Shown: piece after piece, positions 1-3,185 of the stretch
Numbering within the stretch: position 1 is the first letter of the stretch
Layout of the letters: each line of letters opens with the position of its first letter
Notes under the pieces: model-generated
Told to the model about the DNA's origin: nothing
Databases searched by the model: none
The model's input: the letters and a program-made list of their open reading frames with translations, nothing else
Virus record (IMG/VR): IMGVR_UViG_2778261535_000001
Coordinates: 1 to 7,239 of that record
From: a virus
Lineage: Duplodnaviria; Heunggongvirae; Uroviricota; Caudoviricetes
Reading direction: 5' to 3' (one strand)
DNA length: 7,239 nt
Program-made: the position numbers and the translations under genes

Positions 1-828
1 ATTAACGTCCCATGCAGGTCGCTTGCTTGTAACTAGTTCGCCATTAACAGGAATGACTTTTCCTTCGACCAACCATTTCCCGTTAATATAGGTATTCCTG
101 AAAAACGTTCTGGAGGTAAAATAAGTTTTACCCTGCATATCAATAATTCTAGATGAAATAGCAGCCTCAAGTGATTCAAAAGCTAAAGAATCATTTGTAA
201 CACCATCACCTACAGCACCAAAATCTTTAGGGCTAACTGTGTCACGCATCTTATCCTGGAACGTTCTGTATACTGCTCCAGAACCATACTGAATAAACCA
301 ACCAAAACCACCAACAACTCCAGCGATTGCAGCATCGACATAATTACGCATTGAGCGATTATTTACAGCATCCTGCTCAAGTGATGGATCTGCAAGGTTA
401 GAAATTTTGTTTTGCTTTGCATCGTAATATTTTGCAAGCAAAGATGGTTTCATCAATGCGCGTCTGAACCACCCAAAACATTGCTGGATCAGCATCGTCA
501 GGTAGTCAAAGGCATCTTCATGCACTTCGGGGAAAAACTTTCCCTGATTGCGGAGGTCTGTCTCCTGCACTACATCAAGCACACGATCTATCGTAATTAG
601 CCAGCCAACAGCAAGCGGCGACGGAAGAACCACAGAACCGCCACTATAAGTGCCCGCCCCTGTTACCGTATAACCGGTATCCAGAACCAATTCTGTTACG
701 TTCCCGTTCAAGTCAGACACCTGAACAACCAGGTCGGATTTTTTGAAAATACGGAAGGTATACGGAAATGATGTCGTAACGCCGTTACCGGTGTATTCGT
801 TGTGGTCAACTTCGGTTGAGACCGTCAT
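1..828 (-). CDS. Tailspike / tail fibre protein, N-terminal 276 codons (gene continues beyond window start)
   Basis: Not in the ORF track because no stop lies in the window; hand translation of the minus strand from ATG 828..826 is open for 276 codons down to position 1. RBS GGAGA sits 6-7 nt upstream (plus 836..840). N-terminus MTVSTEVDHNEYTGNGVTTSFPYTFRIFKKSDLVVQV fits the pattern of the T7 gp17-type particle-binding domain (Y-x2-[DN]G-x4-F-x3-F ... VV). A DAVNNRSMRNYVD motif follows, then SPKDFGAVGDGVTNDSLAFESLEAAI, typical of the first rung of a pectate-lyase-like beta-helix receptor-binding or depolymerase domain. Confidence 0.75.
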   Translation of the reverse strand, partial: MTVSTEVDHNEYTGNGVTTSFPYTFRIFKKSDLVVQVSDLNGNVTELVLDTGYTVTGAGTYSGGSVVLPSPLAVGWLITIDRVLDVVQETDLRNQGKFFPEVHEDAFDYLTMLIQQCFGWFRRALMKPSLLAKYYDAKQNKISNLADPSLEQDAVNNRSMRNYVDAAIAGVVGGFGWFIQYGSGAVYRTFQDKMRDTVSPKDFGAVGDGVTNDSLAFESLEAAISSRIIDMQGKTYFTSRTFFRNTYINGKWLVEGKVIPVNGELVTSKRPAWDVN

Positions 829-931: not shown

Positions 932-948
932 ATTACCTTTCAGGTAAT
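932..948. promoter_or_regulatory. Operator-like 17-bp palindrome, site A (ATTACCTTTCAGGTAAT)
   Basis: Perfect 7-bp inverted arms ATTACCT / AGGTAAT around a 3-bp centre. Lies in the divergent intergenic region between the tailspike start (828) and the small + gene (1024). Near-identical copies at 2051..2067 and 2144..2160; an isolated left half-site ATTACCT at 882..888. Confidence 0.5.
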
Positions 949-1023: not shown

Positions 1024-1281
1024 ATGCAGCAGTATCACTATCCACTGGAAGACGGATTTACCGAAAGGATTCACACGCCGGGAGGCGTCAGATCACTGGT
1101 GGAGGGATCGCACTTGATGAAATTACTCCGGGATCTCGATAAGGATGGATTTAATGTCGATGGCCCACTTGCCGAACTGACTGCACTGATTAACTACGTC
1201 ACCAGCTCACAGATGTCTATGCAGGATCTGCAAACACATCTCGACTATTGTGCCGAACAACTACGAAAACAAACCACATAA
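1024..1281 (+). CDS. Small antirepressor-like protein (85 aa), stand-alone paralogue of the Ant C-terminal domain
   Basis: ATG at 1024 with RBS GGAG (1012..1015) 8 nt upstream; the ORF track's TTG at 1006 is judged a less likely start. Stop TAA at 1279..1281. Residues ~17-80 (HTPGGVRSLVEGSHLMKLLRDLDKDGFNVDGPLAELTALINYV...DLQTHLDY) align with the C-terminus of the 2429..3139 protein (HSPSGVLGLTESSLLMNLLNQLQEDGHDVSGAAAELTTMFCYI...DIQTHAEY) at roughly 40-45% identity by eye. Confidence 0.65.
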   Translation: MQQYHYPLEDGFTERIHTPGGVRSLVEGSHLMKLLRDLDKDGFNVDGPLAELTALINYVTSSQMSMQDLQTHLDYCAEQLRKQTT

Positions 1282-1303
1282 AGAAAAGGCCGCAAGAGCG
1301 GCC
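1275..1303. terminator. Bidirectional intrinsic terminator between convergent genes
   Basis: Perfect hairpin GGCCGC-AAGA-GCGGCC at 1288..1303. On the minus strand it is followed by TTTTCTTTATG (complement of 1275..1287); on the plus strand by the moderately T-rich TATCGTTTCGCTTTG. It sits between the + stop (1281) and the - stop (1303..1305). Confidence 0.55.
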
Positions 1304-2031
1304 TATCGTTTCGCTTTGTGCTCGTCCCAGCACGTTTTGCACCATGCCATTAAGCCATCCGCATTTTGATTATTAGGGTAAAAACTGGTTCGTTTTCTGC
1401 GGACATTACAAATTGGGCACCACTTCATATGGCGTGTATTCTTTGGGCCATCGAGACACCTTGCACACCACTTAGTCAATCCATCTGGATTTTTTGACGA
1501 TTTCCTGAATTTTTCATATGGAAGGTTTATTCTGCATCGCAAACACTGCTTGCGGGCACTTGAAACTTCGTTAGCTGATTCTTCTTTTGACGGCGATACA
1601 GAAGGTATTCTTGCTGGCTCTGATACTGCCTGAGGTGCTTTTTTAGGTGACTGAGACGATATGTCATCACCAGGGAATCTGTCATGATATGCCGGACGCG
1701 TTGACACTCCAGGTGGAAGCTCTGCTGTAAATGGCTTTGGCTGAATCAGCGCCCTCTCTTTTGCTGACTCCTGCTGTTTATAATATGTCTGGATTACCGA
1801 TATATCATAAGCAGGATGTACAGAAATATCCGGCGCATTACCTCCAGTTTTTTGAAACTGAGTGGAGGTGTGGTCTATCACCTGTGTACGATTAATCGTT
1901 ATTTCTCCATCTTCGGTCTTTATCGTTTTGCGATGATTAACGACTGTGCGATCAGAGACCTTAGTCCTGTTCTGGTTGATAACGTAAATAATCACCGTAA
2001 CAACACCAACAACTATCCAGAAAACTTCCAT
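1303..2031 (-). CDS. Membrane-anchored protein with two tandem C4 zinc ribbons (242 aa), function unknown
   Basis: ATG at 2031 with RBS GAGGAAAA upstream; stop TAG at 1303..1305. One N-terminal hydrophobic helix (FWIVVGVVTVIIYVI) followed by a cluster of basic residues, which by the positive-inside rule puts the C-terminus in the cytoplasm. A long Ser/Pro/Lys/Glu-rich low-complexity linker follows. The basic C-terminal ~80 aa carry two repeats of C-x2-C-x22-C-x2-C, each with DGLxxWCxxC (CLRC...NPDGLTKWCARC and CPIC...NADGLMAWCKTC). The gene looks AT-richer than its neighbours by eye. Confidence 0.7.
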   Translation of the reverse strand: MEVFWIVVGVVTVIIYVINQNRTKVSDRTVVNHRKTIKTEDGEITINRTQVIDHTSTQFQKTGGNAPDISVHPAYDISVIQTYYKQQESAKERALIQPKPFTAELPPGVSTRPAYHDRFPGDDISSQSPKKAPQAVSEPARIPSVSPSKEESANEVSSARKQCLRCRINLPYEKFRKSSKNPDGLTKWCARCLDGPKNTRHMKWCPICNVRRKRTSFYPNNQNADGLMAWCKTCWDEHKAKR

Positions 2032-2067: not shown

Positions 2068-2143
2068 ATCTTGCTTTCAGGTGATCAAGCGTTAAACGCA
2101 ATCAACCAAATACGGTTGATTTTAATATTTATCCGCGTTTATC

Positions 2144-2160
2144 ATTACCTTTGAGGTAAA
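2144..2160. promoter_or_regulatory. Operator-like 17-bp palindrome, site C (ATTACCTTTGAGGTAAA)
   Basis: Arms ATTACCT / AGGTAAA (one mismatch). Directly abuts the -35-like TTTACA at 2161..2166 of the candidate plus-strand promoter for the ant leader. Centre-to-centre distance from site B is 93 bp. Confidence 0.5.
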
Positions 2161-2189
2161 TTTACATCGCACTCCTCTTGTGCCATAGT
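2161..2189 (+). promoter_or_regulatory. Candidate sigma70 promoter for the leader/ant transcript
   Basis: TTTACA (2161..2166), 17-nt spacer, CATAGT (2184..2189). Identified by eye only; the -10 is weak. Confidence 0.3.
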
Positions 2190-2193
2190 AATC

Positions 2194-2272
2194 GGGCACT
2201 GGCAAAATCCAGTGCCGGGATTGGCGTCCCGAGTTACTAAGTGGCGCATACCACGCCAGACGTGGTTTTTTT
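2194..2272 (+). ncRNA. Candidate structured leader or small RNA upstream of the antirepressor gene
   Basis: Perfect 8-bp hairpin GGCACTGG-CAAAAT-CCAGTGCC (2195..2216), a second small hairpin GGGA-TTGGCG-TCCC (2217..2230), then an intrinsic terminator. No credible ORF. The region also contains an approximately 19-bp imperfect direct copy (2236..2254) of the ant translation-initiation region (2409..2427). Confidence 0.3.
2250..2272 (+). terminator. Intrinsic terminator/attenuator within the ant leader
   Basis: GC-rich hairpin ACCACG-CCAGA-CGTGGT followed by a run of seven T (2266..2272). It is strand-specific: on the minus strand the U-tract would precede the stem. It lies 156 nt upstream of the ant start codon. 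Confidence 0.5.
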
Positions 2273-2428
2273 ATGCGTTAAGCACAGCTATATCCGAATT
2301 ATGGTGGGCTGGGCAGGGGTCCGAAAGGACGCCGGTACCACTTAGGCCGGTACGCCAACCTTGTCCAGTTCACCACCAGTAATTGGCGTTGCGGTGGTGA
2401 TTAAAATCACTAAGTGGAGATAACCACC

Positions 2429-3139
2429 ATGGCTAATGCTCAAACTGCCATCTTCAAATTTGAATCTGTTAACCCTATCCGTTCCATCATTATCGATGGC
2501 CAACCATGGTTTGTAGCCCAAGACGTTTGTAGTGCGCTGCGTATCCAAAACGTCACCCAAGCACTTGAAAAACTGGATGATGATGAAAGGTCTATGTTCA
2601 ACATAGGGCATGAACATCGTGCAATTTTTGACAGCCGAGTAAAAGAGATCAACATCATCTCCGAGTCAGGCCTCTACACACTGATCCTCCGCTGCCGCGA
2701 TGCAGTAACACCAGGCACTATCCCCTACCGCTTTCGTAAATGGGTTACAGGTGAGGTTCTTCCTCAGATCCGCCGCACCGGAAGTTACATTAAAAACTCG
2801 CTCCCGCAGGAAGAACGCATAAAGATGGTTGCCGACCAGGTAGCCAACGCCACAGCATCAGCAGTGATGCAGGCAATGAAGGTAGAGAACAAAACCTACA
2901 GCGCCCCACTGAAGCCCGGCTACCGCAGCCTGATTCATTCGCCGTCTGGTGTTCTCGGCCTGACGGAGAGCTCACTGCTGATGAATCTGCTGAACCAGTT
3001 ACAGGAAGACGGGCACGACGTATCGGGCGCGGCGGCGGAACTGACCACCATGTTCTGCTACATCGTCGGTGTGAGTAAATGCCTGCGTGATATCCAGACC
3101 CACGCGGAATACATCAACGACAAGGCAGGGTTCTTCTGA
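2429..3139 (+). CDS. BRO-N domain antirepressor (Ant-like), 236 aa
   Basis: ATG at 2429 with RBS GGAG (2416..2419) 9 nt upstream; the ORF track's GTG at 2414 is judged less likely. Stop TGA at 3137..3139. N-terminal half carries the hallmark BRO-N motifs (FKFESVNPIRSIIIDGQPWFVAQDVCSAL, ALEKLDDDE, ISESGLYTLIL, FRKWVTGEVLPQIRRTGSY). The C-terminal ~80 aa are homologous to the 85-aa protein at 1024..1281. Confidence 0.88.
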   Translation: MANAQTAIFKFESVNPIRSIIIDGQPWFVAQDVCSALRIQNVTQALEKLDDDERSMFNIGHEHRAIFDSRVKEINIISESGLYTLILRCRDAVTPGTIPYRFRKWVTGEVLPQIRRTGSYIKNSLPQEERIKMVADQVANATASAVMQAMKVENKTYSAPLKPGYRSLIHSPSGVLGLTESSLLMNLLNQLQEDGHDVSGAAAELTTMFCYIVGVSKCLRDIQTHAEYINDKAGFF

Positions 3140-3156: not shown

Positions 3157-3185
3157 CGTTAAAAACAAGGCCGCGAAAGCGGCCT
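3157..3185 (-). terminator. Intrinsic terminator for the minus-strand virion-gene transcript (also caps the + ant transcript)
   Basis: Perfect hairpin AGGCCGC-GAAA-GCGGCCT (3168..3185) with a GNRA-type loop. On the minus strand it is followed by TTGTTTTTAAC. Its stem is almost identical to the hairpin at 1288..1303. Confidence 0.55.

Follow-up and report, generated by a model that had tools for sequence, protein, structure and literature searches.

A probable immI-type RNA immunity module upstream of the antirepressor gene of an epsilon15/phiV10-like Escherichia coli prophage

The region preceding the antirepressor gene ant in the window, i.e. the whole 7,239-nt stretch of DNA analysed here, which derives from an epsilon15/phiV10-like E. 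coli prophage, is in all probability an immI-type RNA immunity module, homologous to the c4 systems of phages P1 and P7, to P4 CI/seqA, to the N15 anti-immunity locus and to IsrK/STnc1160 of Gifsy-1. The homology, the RNA structures, the complementarities and the covariation across phages are all observed. A first-pass annotation had proposed that the antirepressor is controlled by RNA, which was right in spirit; an isrK element and a C4 element precede ant. It had pictured the region as an attenuator or switch within the leader itself, and for the attenuator there is a precedent at the homologous P4 t1; the C4 RNA gene at 2297-2380 had been missed, and since this element is in P1 cut from the transcript and acts in trans, we are not dealing simply with a cis-folding leader.

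Knowledge of the c4 immunity module in P1 goes back to 1990; the P1 c4 RNA is excised from its transcript and acts in trans. The module type is thus long known and covered by Rfam, and its recognition here adds little new to phage biology; it does explain an unannotated 270-nt gap 5' of the antirepressor gene in a common E. coli prophage family. Specifically, no RNA annotation was found at this locus in the RefSeq and GenBank records of close relatives, and in several public records long protein-coding genes are annotated straight over both RNA genes. The association of isrK and c4 with a BRO-N gene is already in print for the APSE phages of Hamiltonella (bioRxiv 10.1101/2020.03.17.996009), which share this three-part arrangement and differ in host and phage group. 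The elements of the module are the following.

2144-2160, no strand assigned: operator-like 17-bp palindrome ATTACCTTTGAGGTAAA, abutting the -35 hexamer (repeat and inverted-repeat scan)
2161-2189, plus strand: sigma-70 promoter-like site, TTTACA, 17-nt spacer, CATAGT, with an upstream TG (promoter scan)
2196-2272, plus strand: IsrK-like leader, a 77-nt terminated small RNA (Rfam isrK, RF01394)
2221-2227, plus strand: target site a1, UUGGCGU, in the loop of hairpin 2, complementary to a'; equivalent to P1 a1 at 48255-48261
2237-2244, plus strand: target site b1, CUAAGUGG, complementary to b'; equivalent to P1 b1 at 48269-48276
2250-2272, plus strand: intrinsic terminator with a 6-bp stem, a 5-nt loop and seven U
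2273-2280, plus strand: 3' strand of a lower stem, pairing with 2242-2249 across the U-tract in predicted folds
2297-2380, plus strand: C4 antisense RNA gene (Rfam C4, RF01695)
2338-2345, plus strand: b' recognition loop, CCACUUAG (string search and folding)
2352-2358, plus strand: a' single-stranded recognition segment, ACGCCAA (string search and folding)
2383-2389, plus strand: target site a2, UUGGCGU, 3 nt past the Rfam C4 match; equivalent to P1 a2 at 48423-48429
2394-2430, plus strand: predicted hairpin, GUGGUG (2394-2399) with CACCAU (2425-2430) (folding)
2410-2417, plus strand: target site b2, CUAAGUGG, overlapping the Shine-Dalgarno sequence GGAG at 2416-2419
2429-3139, plus strand: ant, the putative regulated gene, annotated as a 236-aa Bro-N antirepressor (RefSeq CDS here)

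The stretch 2196-2272 matches the Rfam isrK model over model positions 1-77 (67.2 bits against a cut-off of 50, E 3.7e-13), and it displays the isrK architecture, with a pair of hairpins at the 5' end, then an unpaired spacer and an intrinsic terminator, and with a promoter directly upstream. Its parts are hairpin 1 (2195-2216), hairpin 2 (2216-2231, with a1 in the loop), a single-stranded b1 and the terminator; the predicted fold reaches -29.7 kcal/mol (z -2.9), and its helices covary. The earlier suggestion of a free-standing small RNA at 2194-2272 accords with this match, IsrK being a known free-standing, terminated small RNA. The 8-bp hairpin was recovered by an exact-string search (GGCACTGG at 2195 and CCAGTGCC at 2209, separated by a 6-nt loop), and string search and terminator scan agree on the terminator, ACCACG-CCAGA-CGTGGT followed by seven T, at 2250-2272. 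This terminator occupies a position homologous to those of the IsrK terminator and of P4 t1, and is present in all related loci. The c4-a1b1 motif (RF03163) scored 44.3 bits, against a cut-off of 46.7 (E 7e-9), on a stretch that also falls inside the isrK match; P1 itself scores 51.0 bits on this model.

The second element, 2297-2380, matches the C4 model over its full length (66.0 bits against a cut-off of 45, E 1.5e-11, model positions 1-87). It has the C4 shape, that is, a 17-bp closing stem, a hairpin 1 with a GAAA loop, a hairpin 2 exposing b' in its loop and a single-stranded a', and the 84-nt cloverleaf-like fold has a predicted energy of -43.6 kcal/mol (z -5.0), with minimum-energy and centroid folds in agreement. 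In the alignment of relatives, 100% of the cells of the closing stem are paired and seven of its pairs show compensatory changes. The mature C4 is predicted at about 2303-2377 by alignment with P1 c4, whose annotated ends align with the context in which UAU is followed by GGUGGG and, on the 3' side, with a terminal CCACC.

All the motifs listed in the first-pass annotation were recovered, a single one of them with a one-base shift. The 8-mer that had drawn attention at 2338 (CCACTTAG) was confirmed, and is the b' loop of C4. Its complement, CTAAGTGG, occurs at 2237 and 2410 and nowhere else in the whole 7.2-kb window; among 5000 mononucleotide shuffles of 2161-2440, 19 contained some 8-mer in two copies along with its reverse complement. 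The complementarity to the Shine-Dalgarno region stands as the key contact (b'/b2), and the upstream copy, earlier called a decoy, is the second target site, b1. The two 19-nt stretches at 2236 and 2409 described as an imperfect repeat are indeed identical at 15 of 19 positions, but the tail beyond the 9-nt b site is not conserved. In addition, a second triple had been overlooked, UUGGCGU at 2221 and 2383 and ACGCCAA at 2352, and the conserved second contact is that of a' with a1 and a2. It replaces the pairing put forward between GGCGTCC and GGACGCC: the former is present at 2223 and the latter at 2327-2333 rather than 2326-2332, but this second arm is buried in two C4 helices, the stems of hairpin 1 and hairpin 2, and relatives carry GGUGCGCC and similar sequences in its place. 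The pairing of a' with a2 extends over 7 bp and that of b' with b2 over 8 bp, running into GGAG, with duplex energies of about -11.8 kcal/mol for a and -12.6 kcal/mol for b. All four target sites are perfectly complementary, a1 and b1 being exact copies of a2 and b2.

Across phages, a tandem of isrK followed by C4 was found in 16-18 loci, including P1, P4 and N15, and in 15 of the 15 phage loci fetched, as well as in N15 and P4, the two elements lie in this order on one strand, 5' of an ORF. When C4 was folded separately in 16 loci a common shape emerged. On 15 sequences the canonical structure attains 96.2% pairing, compared to 38-49% in slid controls, and includes 25 pairs with compensatory changes, which none of 500 shuffles reached; the helices of the leader and the stems of C4 covary among the loci. 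In a cross-locus matrix, b' matches its own leader over a median of 8 nt and its own downstream ribosome-binding site over a median of 9 nt, whereas non-cognate pairs average 4.2 nt (leader) and 4.7 nt (ribosome-binding site), with only 0.8% and 1.7% of them attaining the cognate median. The scaffold retains an identity of 0.81-0.96, compared to 0.45 in the b' loop, and the loci comprise at least 12 variants of b and 4 of a. The b' loop, b1 and b2 thus change together between phages on a near-constant scaffold, and the overlap of b2 with the Shine-Dalgarno sequence is kept in most loci. For instance, the b site reads CUAAGUGG in this prophage and CUAAAAGG in TL-2011b.

The candidate promoter at 2161-2189 was recovered by the promoter scan, with a predicted transcription start at about 2196. 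The gap between the end of the -10 element and the first hairpin is 7 nt, as in annotated P1c4 (-10 at 48218-48223, hairpin from 48230), and the other phage loci have a promoter-like site at an equal offset. The operator-like palindrome is present in three copies in the window (932-948, 2051-2067 and 2144-2160), compared to 0.04 expected, a count reached in none of 200 shuffles; the sequence of these putative operators is ATTACCTTTNAGGTAAT.

The product of ant matches Pfam Bro-N (1e-19) and PHROG 130, 'anti-repressor Ant' (9.9e-57), and its ORF is intact; on this annotation Ant is a putative antirepressor. For a Bro-N antirepressor of a Uetakevirus, a 39%-identical relative, overexpression is known to promote lysis (PMC9782041). 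The first-pass annotation had seen no ORF in the leader, which is correct in essence: the two that are found mechanically, of 56 aa (2212-2382) and 34 aa (2241-2345), cross the terminator and are broken by indels in relatives. A search between 2380 and 2429 found no coupling ORF of the icd or orf45 type, and the frame opening at AUG 2301 has 14 codons and ends with UAG at 2343-2345, inside b'. We therefore discarded an orf45- or icd-like coding reading, given the short frame and the indels that break the frames in relatives. Membership in the RNA families is unaffected in this operon variant devoid of icd and orf45.

Around the start codon, the predicted hairpin 2394-2430 encloses b2 and the Shine-Dalgarno sequence and holds the first two start-codon bases, A and U, in its stem; 95.6% of its cells are paired across loci, with one-sided changes only, so that it is not proven by covariation. 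In relatives a2 sits in a small covarying hairpin (four of five pairs compensatory), which is weak here (2380-2383/2388-2391). In an alternative proposed by RNAalifold, the two C4 strands take other partners, the 5' strand in the start-codon region and the 3' strand in GGUGGUGA; as the strands involved are nearly invariant, this alternative is inseparable from the canonical fold. When mature C4 and the 5' region of ant were co-folded at minimum energy, no pairs formed between the two molecules, a result that is uninformative because the method cannot represent contacts between loops and single strands without opening helices.

By analogy with the relatives, a promoter under operator control (2161-2189) would drive transcription from near 2196, and many transcripts would end at the terminator (2250-2272), giving rise to a 77-nt IsrK-like RNA bearing a1 and b1. 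Read-through transcripts would carry C4 (2297-2380), to be cut to about 75 nt (2303-2377) as in P1, with RNase P presumably acting at the 5' end. Acting in trans, C4 would then pair through a' and b' with a2 and b2 on the ant mRNA, covering the first bases of the Shine-Dalgarno sequence, so that translation of ant would be blocked and the prophage repressor would not be inactivated. In addition, binding of C4 to a1 and b1 on the nascent leader would probably increase termination at 2272, an autoregulation like that at P4 t1, and the terminated leader may titrate C4, in keeping with the activating role of IsrK in Gifsy-1. Processing, trans action, translational block and effect on termination are thus all read across from the relatives, and the P1, P4 and N15 mechanisms are taken from record annotation, the discussion of the IsrK paper, a 2025 review or general knowledge.

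The layout of P1 immI is closely reproduced: operator, promoter, a hairpin leader with a1 in a loop and with b1, a terminator-like hairpin, c4, a2, b2 at the ribosome-binding site and the regulated gene. The site lengths (7 nt for a, 8 nt for b) and the C4 fold are alike, and in both cases the target operon encodes an antirepressor. The spacings differ by little, with 16 nt here and 14 in P1 between a1 and b1, 27 and 29 between a2 and b2, and 11 and 10 between b2 and the start codon, which in P1 is that of icd (b2 at 48452-48459). In P1, b2 is carried by the icd ribosome-binding site, whereas here, as there is no icd gene, it lies on the ant Shine-Dalgarno sequence itself. Furthermore, the Bro-N protein Ant bears no relation to the Ant1/2 arrangement of P1, a 17-bp palindrome takes the place of a C1 site as the operator, and the recognition sequences are UUGGCGU and CUAAGUGG, compared to UUGACAG and GUUAGUG in P1. 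Here the leader ends in a clean intrinsic terminator, whereas the P1 leader is a weak isrK (35 bits, compared to 67) with a terminator-like hairpin. The first-pass annotation had instead drawn the comparison with sar of P22, with which the locus shares RNA control of an antirepressor and a similar position between the tailspike and the ejection/virion protein genes. This comparison did not hold: the Rfam search gave no sar match at E values up to 1, and sar is read from the strand opposite to ant, over its ribosome-binding site, whereas here all conserved elements lie on the ant strand. A sar-like opposite-strand RNA was rejected accordingly, the minus-strand 'terminator' at 2428-2413 being the complement of the small hairpin at the ribosome-binding site.

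The outcomes in the characterised relatives differ, with translational repression in P1, termination in P4 and N15, and activation by the short leader in Gifsy-1. It is possible, though we consider it doubtful, that the P4/N15 logic dominates here, C4 acting mainly on transcription (by enhancing termination at 2272 via a1/b1, and by causing premature termination, perhaps Rho-dependent, after a2/b2), with translational occlusion being secondary. P4 (CI RNA, seqA, seqC and t1) and N15 both carry the isrK-C4 tandem with complementary a and b sites on both sides, and N15 resembles our locus also in regulating an antirepressor operon and in having a leader terminator annotated in its record. For P4 t1, which follows seqA, a requirement for both CI RNA and seqA was reportedly found by Briani and colleagues in 2000. 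With a1 and b1 blocked in silico, the terminator formed with a probability of 0.96 instead of 0.69 here, and of 0.97 instead of 0.89 in P4; the rise here also supports the immI-type module described above. The thermodynamic effect is, however, modest, and control blocks raised the probability somewhat too (to 0.75 here). Pairing of CI RNA with seqA and seqC is known to cause termination in P4 (PMC4825925). The P4 targets are replication genes and its output is transcription termination, and its leader-to-CI gap is of about 107 nt, compared to 24 nt here; N15, for its part, has small ORFs (genes 32 and 31) before ant. A conserved antiterminator containing b1 is also missing: UGGCG (2242-2246) pairs with CGCCA (2254-2258) with a probability of 0.90 in the nascent RNA of the window, but the terminator 5' arm is not paired with b1 across loci, which leaves a mere hint. 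Finally, the overlap of b2 with the Shine-Dalgarno sequence in most loci points to translational control.

According to a further reading, which we regard as unlikely to be the dominant one, the logic would be that of Gifsy-1 IsrK/STnc1160/orf45-anrP (RF01394), where the short RNA activates: the read-through mRNA would be self-silenced, and the short leader 2196-2272 would act in trans as an activator, pairing with the a'/b' region and freeing the ant ribosome-binding site. The leader matches isrK end to end, terminator included and above the cut-off, a C4-type element follows about 24 nt downstream and then an antirepressor gene, and partial read-through is expected; for Gifsy-1 it has been reported that the terminator is read through, that a processed RNA, STnc1160, arises downstream, and that the locus is homologous to P4 seqA/CI (PMC4825925). 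There, IsrK provided in trans lifts anrP translation more than 100-fold, and compensatory mutants demonstrate the a1/a' pairing (PMC4825925). The location of the ant start codon inside a predicted hairpin and the exact copying of a2/b2 by a1/b1, which makes the leader a perfect competitor for them, fit as well. However, the Gifsy-1 mechanism needs translation of orf45, from the C4 5' strand, coupled to that of anrP, whereas the equivalent frame here stops within b' after 14 codons, and the placing of b2 directly on the ant Shine-Dalgarno sequence, as at P1 icd, fits repression by C4. Only for the IsrK of Gifsy-1 is it known that the RNA binds Hfq and activates in trans the read-through mRNA of its own locus (PMC4825925). 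The Gifsy-1 type of control is compatible with the immI-type module described above.

A purely cis-acting switch, in which the 8-mer pairs within its own transcript and no separate RNA exists, appears improbable. All partners do share a single transcript, conformers formed in cis play a part in Gifsy-1 (PMC4825925), and the RNAalifold alternative comprises long-range pairings in the precursor; but the element scores as C4, which is annotated separately in P1 as a 77-nt RNA, and it adopts a stable and closed fold, cloverleaf-like in shape, whose acceptor-like stem is conserved. In Salmonella, STnc1160 exists as a stable, processed RNA, and immunity specificity acting in trans would be expected to leave just the pattern seen, a near-invariant scaffold bearing hypervariable recognition loops. 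That the region is a non-functional remnant or a chance resemblance, for which only the absence of annotation in records speaks, is scarcely credible given Rfam E-values of 1e-11 to 1e-13, four perfectly complementary target sites, an intact ant ORF, and a region that 48 E. coli records share at 99% identity or more and that is matched in 472 of 5426 complete genomes.

Returning to the immI-type module, we tentatively suggest that one 230-nt leader might join the logics of P1, P4 and Gifsy-1. On such a combined reading, the terminated IsrK-like RNA would titrate C4 as a perfect mimic of its target, C4 would in turn boost termination of the IsrK-like leader, and ant expression would reflect how many transcripts terminate relative to those that read through. 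An RNA heteroimmunity code, with at least 12 specificities among enterobacterial prophages, would be written in the hypervariable a and b sites, and two elements that are conserved here and lie outside the Rfam models, the lower stem and the GGUGG/CCACC strands that recur around C4 and the start codon, would be extra parts of the switch. The compact variant, without icd or orf45, would lend itself to telling apart the roles of the duplicated target sites in translation, in termination and as decoys.

The lower stem bridging the U-tract requires read-through of the terminator in order to form. It was considered as a mask of b1 in read-through RNA and rejected in this role, as it overlaps b1 by 3 nt here and is merely adjacent to it in most loci. 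The stem is part of the minimum-energy fold in 15 of 15 loci, and the energy gain is -6.97 kcal/mol for cognate strands, compared to -5.28 kcal/mol for non-cognate ones (55 of 20000 permutations).

A search of the window against Rfam returned three co-linear matches, all on the + strand:

2183-2235 (+): c4-a1b1 (RF03163), 44.3 bits (cut-off 46.7), E 7e-9
2196-2272 (+): isrK (RF01394), 67.2 bits (cut-off 50), E 3.7e-13
2297-2380 (+): C4 antisense RNA (RF01695), 66.0 bits (cut-off 45), E 1.5e-11

The locus adds a new, so far unannotated, member to a well-known family and represents its compact form, which lacks the icd/orf45 coupling ORF; none of the RefSeq or GenBank records examined carries an RNA annotation at the leader.

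Exact-string searches placed the arms of the 8-bp hairpin described in the first-pass annotation at 2195-2202 and 2209-2216, the 19-mers of its imperfect direct repeat at 2236 and 2409 (15/19 identical), the complementary 8-mer CCACTTAG at 2338 and GGCGTCC at 2223, all as proposed. The terminator (2250-2272, seven U) was recovered by exact search and by a consensus scan, which also returned the proposed promoter-like site at 2161-2189. GGACGCC is present too, its true position (2327-2333) being one base from that originally assigned. CTAAGTGG occurs only twice in the 7.2-kb window, at 2237 and 2410. Of 5000 shuffled versions of the leader, 19 contained an 8-mer twice along with its own reverse complement; the observed motif set is far beyond chance.

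The 8-mer lies in the loop of the second internal C4 hairpin, the b' recognition loop, and the two copies of CTAAGTGG are its target sites b1 and b2. A second triple had been overlooked, in which a' (ACGCCAA, 2352-2358) faces UUGGCGU at a1 (2221) and a2 (2383). Folded alone, the C4 segment forms a 17-bp closing stem and two hairpins, leaving a' single-stranded (-43.6 kcal/mol, z -5.0), and the leader forms two hairpins and the terminator (z -2.9); a 250-nt precursor retains both folds. The earlier interpretation survives in part: RNA control of the antirepressor gene ant (2429-3139, +) with the 8-mer as key contact, a decoy-like upstream copy and a possible small RNA all stand, whereas the C4 RNA gene had been missed and the wrong second pairing named, since GGCGTCC/GGACGCC has no part in the covarying design: GGACGCC is buried within two C4 helices, and relatives carry other sequences at its place.

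The window belongs to an epsilon15/phiV10-like (Uetakevirus) E. coli prophage. For most of its length it shares 97-98% identity with phages HEMP4, phiv142-3 and phiV10. E. coli chromosomes carry the leader at 99% identity, and of 5426 complete genomes 472 contain a match to it. We compared 15 related loci (TL-2011b, EC.W1-9, O157 typing phage 9, Tyrion, a Yersinia phage, Salmonella 118970_sal3, VT2-Sakai, phi419, IdasGreatGrand, Ayreon, SfV, three Stx or lambdoid prophages and Aaphi23), and in addition those of P1, N15 and P4. In all of them isrK is followed by C4 on the same strand, upstream of an ORF.

In the 15-sequence alignment of the leader loci, 96.2% of the cells of the canonical structure are paired, compared to 38-49% with partners slid, and 25 pairs show compensatory changes; none of 500 shuffles reached the observed values. 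More telling than this structural covariation is the intermolecular match of b': across loci, it matches its own leader over a median of 8 nt and its own downstream ribosome-binding site over 9 nt, while non-cognate matches average 4.2 and 4.7 nt, and only 0.8% (leader) and 1.7% (ribosome-binding site) of non-cognate pairs match as long as the cognate median. The loci carry at least 12 b variants and 4 a variants, with identities of 0.81-0.96 in the C4 stems, 0.45 in the b' loop and 0.36-0.46 in the b1 and b2 zones. This pattern is the design of P1/P7 heteroimmunity, a constant scaffold with variable recognition loops and targets tracking them.

Two further elements lie upstream of the leader:

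2116-2145 (+): second promoter-like site, TTGATT/18-nt spacer/TATCAT (consensus scan)
932-948, 2051-2067 and 2144-2160: three copies of the 17-bp palindrome ATTACCTTTNAGGTAAT (0.04 expected by chance)

The palindromes look like operators of one repressor, encoded outside the window. One copy borders on the -35 element of the leader promoter, and one lies just upstream of a divergent 242-aa ORF. The site at 2116-2145 directly precedes the operator, giving a tandem-promoter layout.

In GenBank, the immI region of phage P1 is annotated in detail, with a1 (7 nt), b1 (8 nt) and c4 following the C1 operator Oc4 and promoters P2c4 and P1c4, and with a2 (7 nt), b2 (8 nt), icd and ant1/ant2 following the 77-nt c4 RNA. 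The window shares this order and the target-site lengths, and its two promoter-like sites recall P2c4/P1c4. The spacings are also close (window and P1, respectively): 16 and 14 from a1 to b1, 27 and 29 from a2 to b2, 11 and 10 from the b2 end to the start codon, and 7 in both from the -10 hexamer to the first hairpin. The P1 leader scores 51 bits as c4-a1b1 and a sub-threshold 35 bits as isrK, the latter match taking in a terminator-like hairpin. By alignment to the annotated P1 c4 ends, the mature C4 RNA is predicted at about 2303-2377. The window departs from P1 chiefly in lacking icd: the frame from the invariant AUG at 2301 ends after 14 codons, within b', and b2 therefore falls on the Shine-Dalgarno of ant itself (GGAG, 2416-2419).

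P4 and N15 carry the same isrK-C4 tandem, and their a and b sites match as well. Briani et al., in 2000, reportedly found that CI RNA enhances termination at P4 t1, just past seqA, and that seqA is required. In P1, pairing of c4 RNA around the ribosome-binding site stops antirepressor synthesis and is also the basis of P1/P7 heteroimmunity (review PMC12197685; P1 record notes). In Gifsy-1, some transcripts pass the IsrK terminator, the read-through mRNA being translationally silent and activated by short IsrK supplied in trans; leader G28/G31 (a1 position) pair with C162/C159 (a' position), and a processed RNA, STnc1160, maps to the position of C4 (PMC4825925). The same authors regard IsrK as a structural homolog of P4 seqA and suggest that STnc1160 might modulate termination at the IsrK terminator, as does P4 CI RNA (PMC4825925).

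Because of these precedents in P1, Gifsy-1 and P4/N15, we propose three actions. Most confidently, C4 would repress ant translation at a2/b2. By contacting a1/b1, it would also increase termination at 2272, resulting in C4 autoregulation and less ant transcription, and the terminated leader could compete for C4. In the nascent RNA, UGGCG (2242-2246) pairs with CGCCA (2254-2258) with a probability of 0.90, and terminator probability rises from 0.69 to 0.96 when a1 and b1 are blocked in silico (control block, 0.75), which hints at the a1/b1 termination effect. A b1-containing antiterminator was not conserved across the loci compared.

Several structures lie outside the Rfam models. A conserved lower stem (2242-2249 with 2273-2280), not included in the isrK model, spans the U-tract and can form only in read-through transcripts. 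The minimum-energy folds of all 15 read-through forms contain it, with sequences differing among loci, and cognate 3' flanks add more stability to it than non-cognate ones do (-6.97 and -5.28 kcal/mol; 55 of 20000 permutations). Site a2 sits within a small hairpin, weak in the window, with four of five pairs compensatory in relatives. A predicted helix (2394-2399 with 2425-2430) encloses b2 and the Shine-Dalgarno, and its pairs involve the start-codon A and U; across loci, 95.6% of its cells are paired, with one-sided changes only. Four strands are near-invariant, UAUGGUGG (2300-2307), UCACCACC (2370-2378), GGUGGUGA (2393-2400) and ACCACCAUG (2423-2431). The start-codon helix strands repeat those of the C4 stem, and alternative pairing is therefore possible: either the C4 stem and a start-codon hairpin form side by side, or the strands of C4 bind those downstream. 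Such an exchange may constitute a precursor-level switch.

Profile matches identify the product of 2429-3139 as a Bro-N protein of a PHROG antirepressor family. In the related phage vB_EcoP_ZX5, overexpression of a Bro-N antirepressor 39% identical to that of phiV10 pushed the phage toward lysis (PMC9782041), and for APSE phages the link between c4, isrK and a Bro-N gene has been reported before.

Prophage PPyecE_EH1910 has two complete isrK-C4 modules in tandem (147-335 and 803-991 of the fetched locus), which differ in a/b specificity (UCGCAG/GUCAACGG and UUGGCGU/GUUAUCGG) and both precede an ORF beginning MATVP. In the public records of four loci, long protein-coding genes run over both the isrK terminator and the C4 RNA (L013, 438-1274, which is SfV orf37 'immunity region'; L010, 452-1288; L007, 531-1673; L012, 573-1595); mis-annotation or N-terminal over-extension is the probable cause.

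The ant module is flanked by the following features:

1-828 (-): tail spike, N-terminal part; weak match to endosialidase N-terminal extension
1024-1281 (+): 85-aa ORF, phrog_450, stand-alone paralog of the Ant C-terminal domain
1303-2031 (-): 242-aa ORF, phrog_6762, divergent from the leader
1287-1304 and 3168-3185 (-): strong GC-rich terminator hairpins, AGGCCGC...GCGGCCT (consensus scan)

The 85-aa ORF, preceded by an operator copy, is 42% identical to Ant residues 155-228 over 74 aa (E 1e-15), and its product might compete with Ant or act as its partner. In the 242-aa ORF, a hydrophobic segment at the N-terminus is combined with CxxC motifs at the C-terminus, which show weak similarity to Stc1, endonuclease VII and HNH zinc ribbons. 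The two terminators stand between convergent genes on both sides of the ant module, which they would insulate from the neighbouring structural genes. RefSeq labels the homolog of the tail spike an endosialidase beta-propeller protein, and a spike of endosialidase type suggests a K1-capsule-specific phage.
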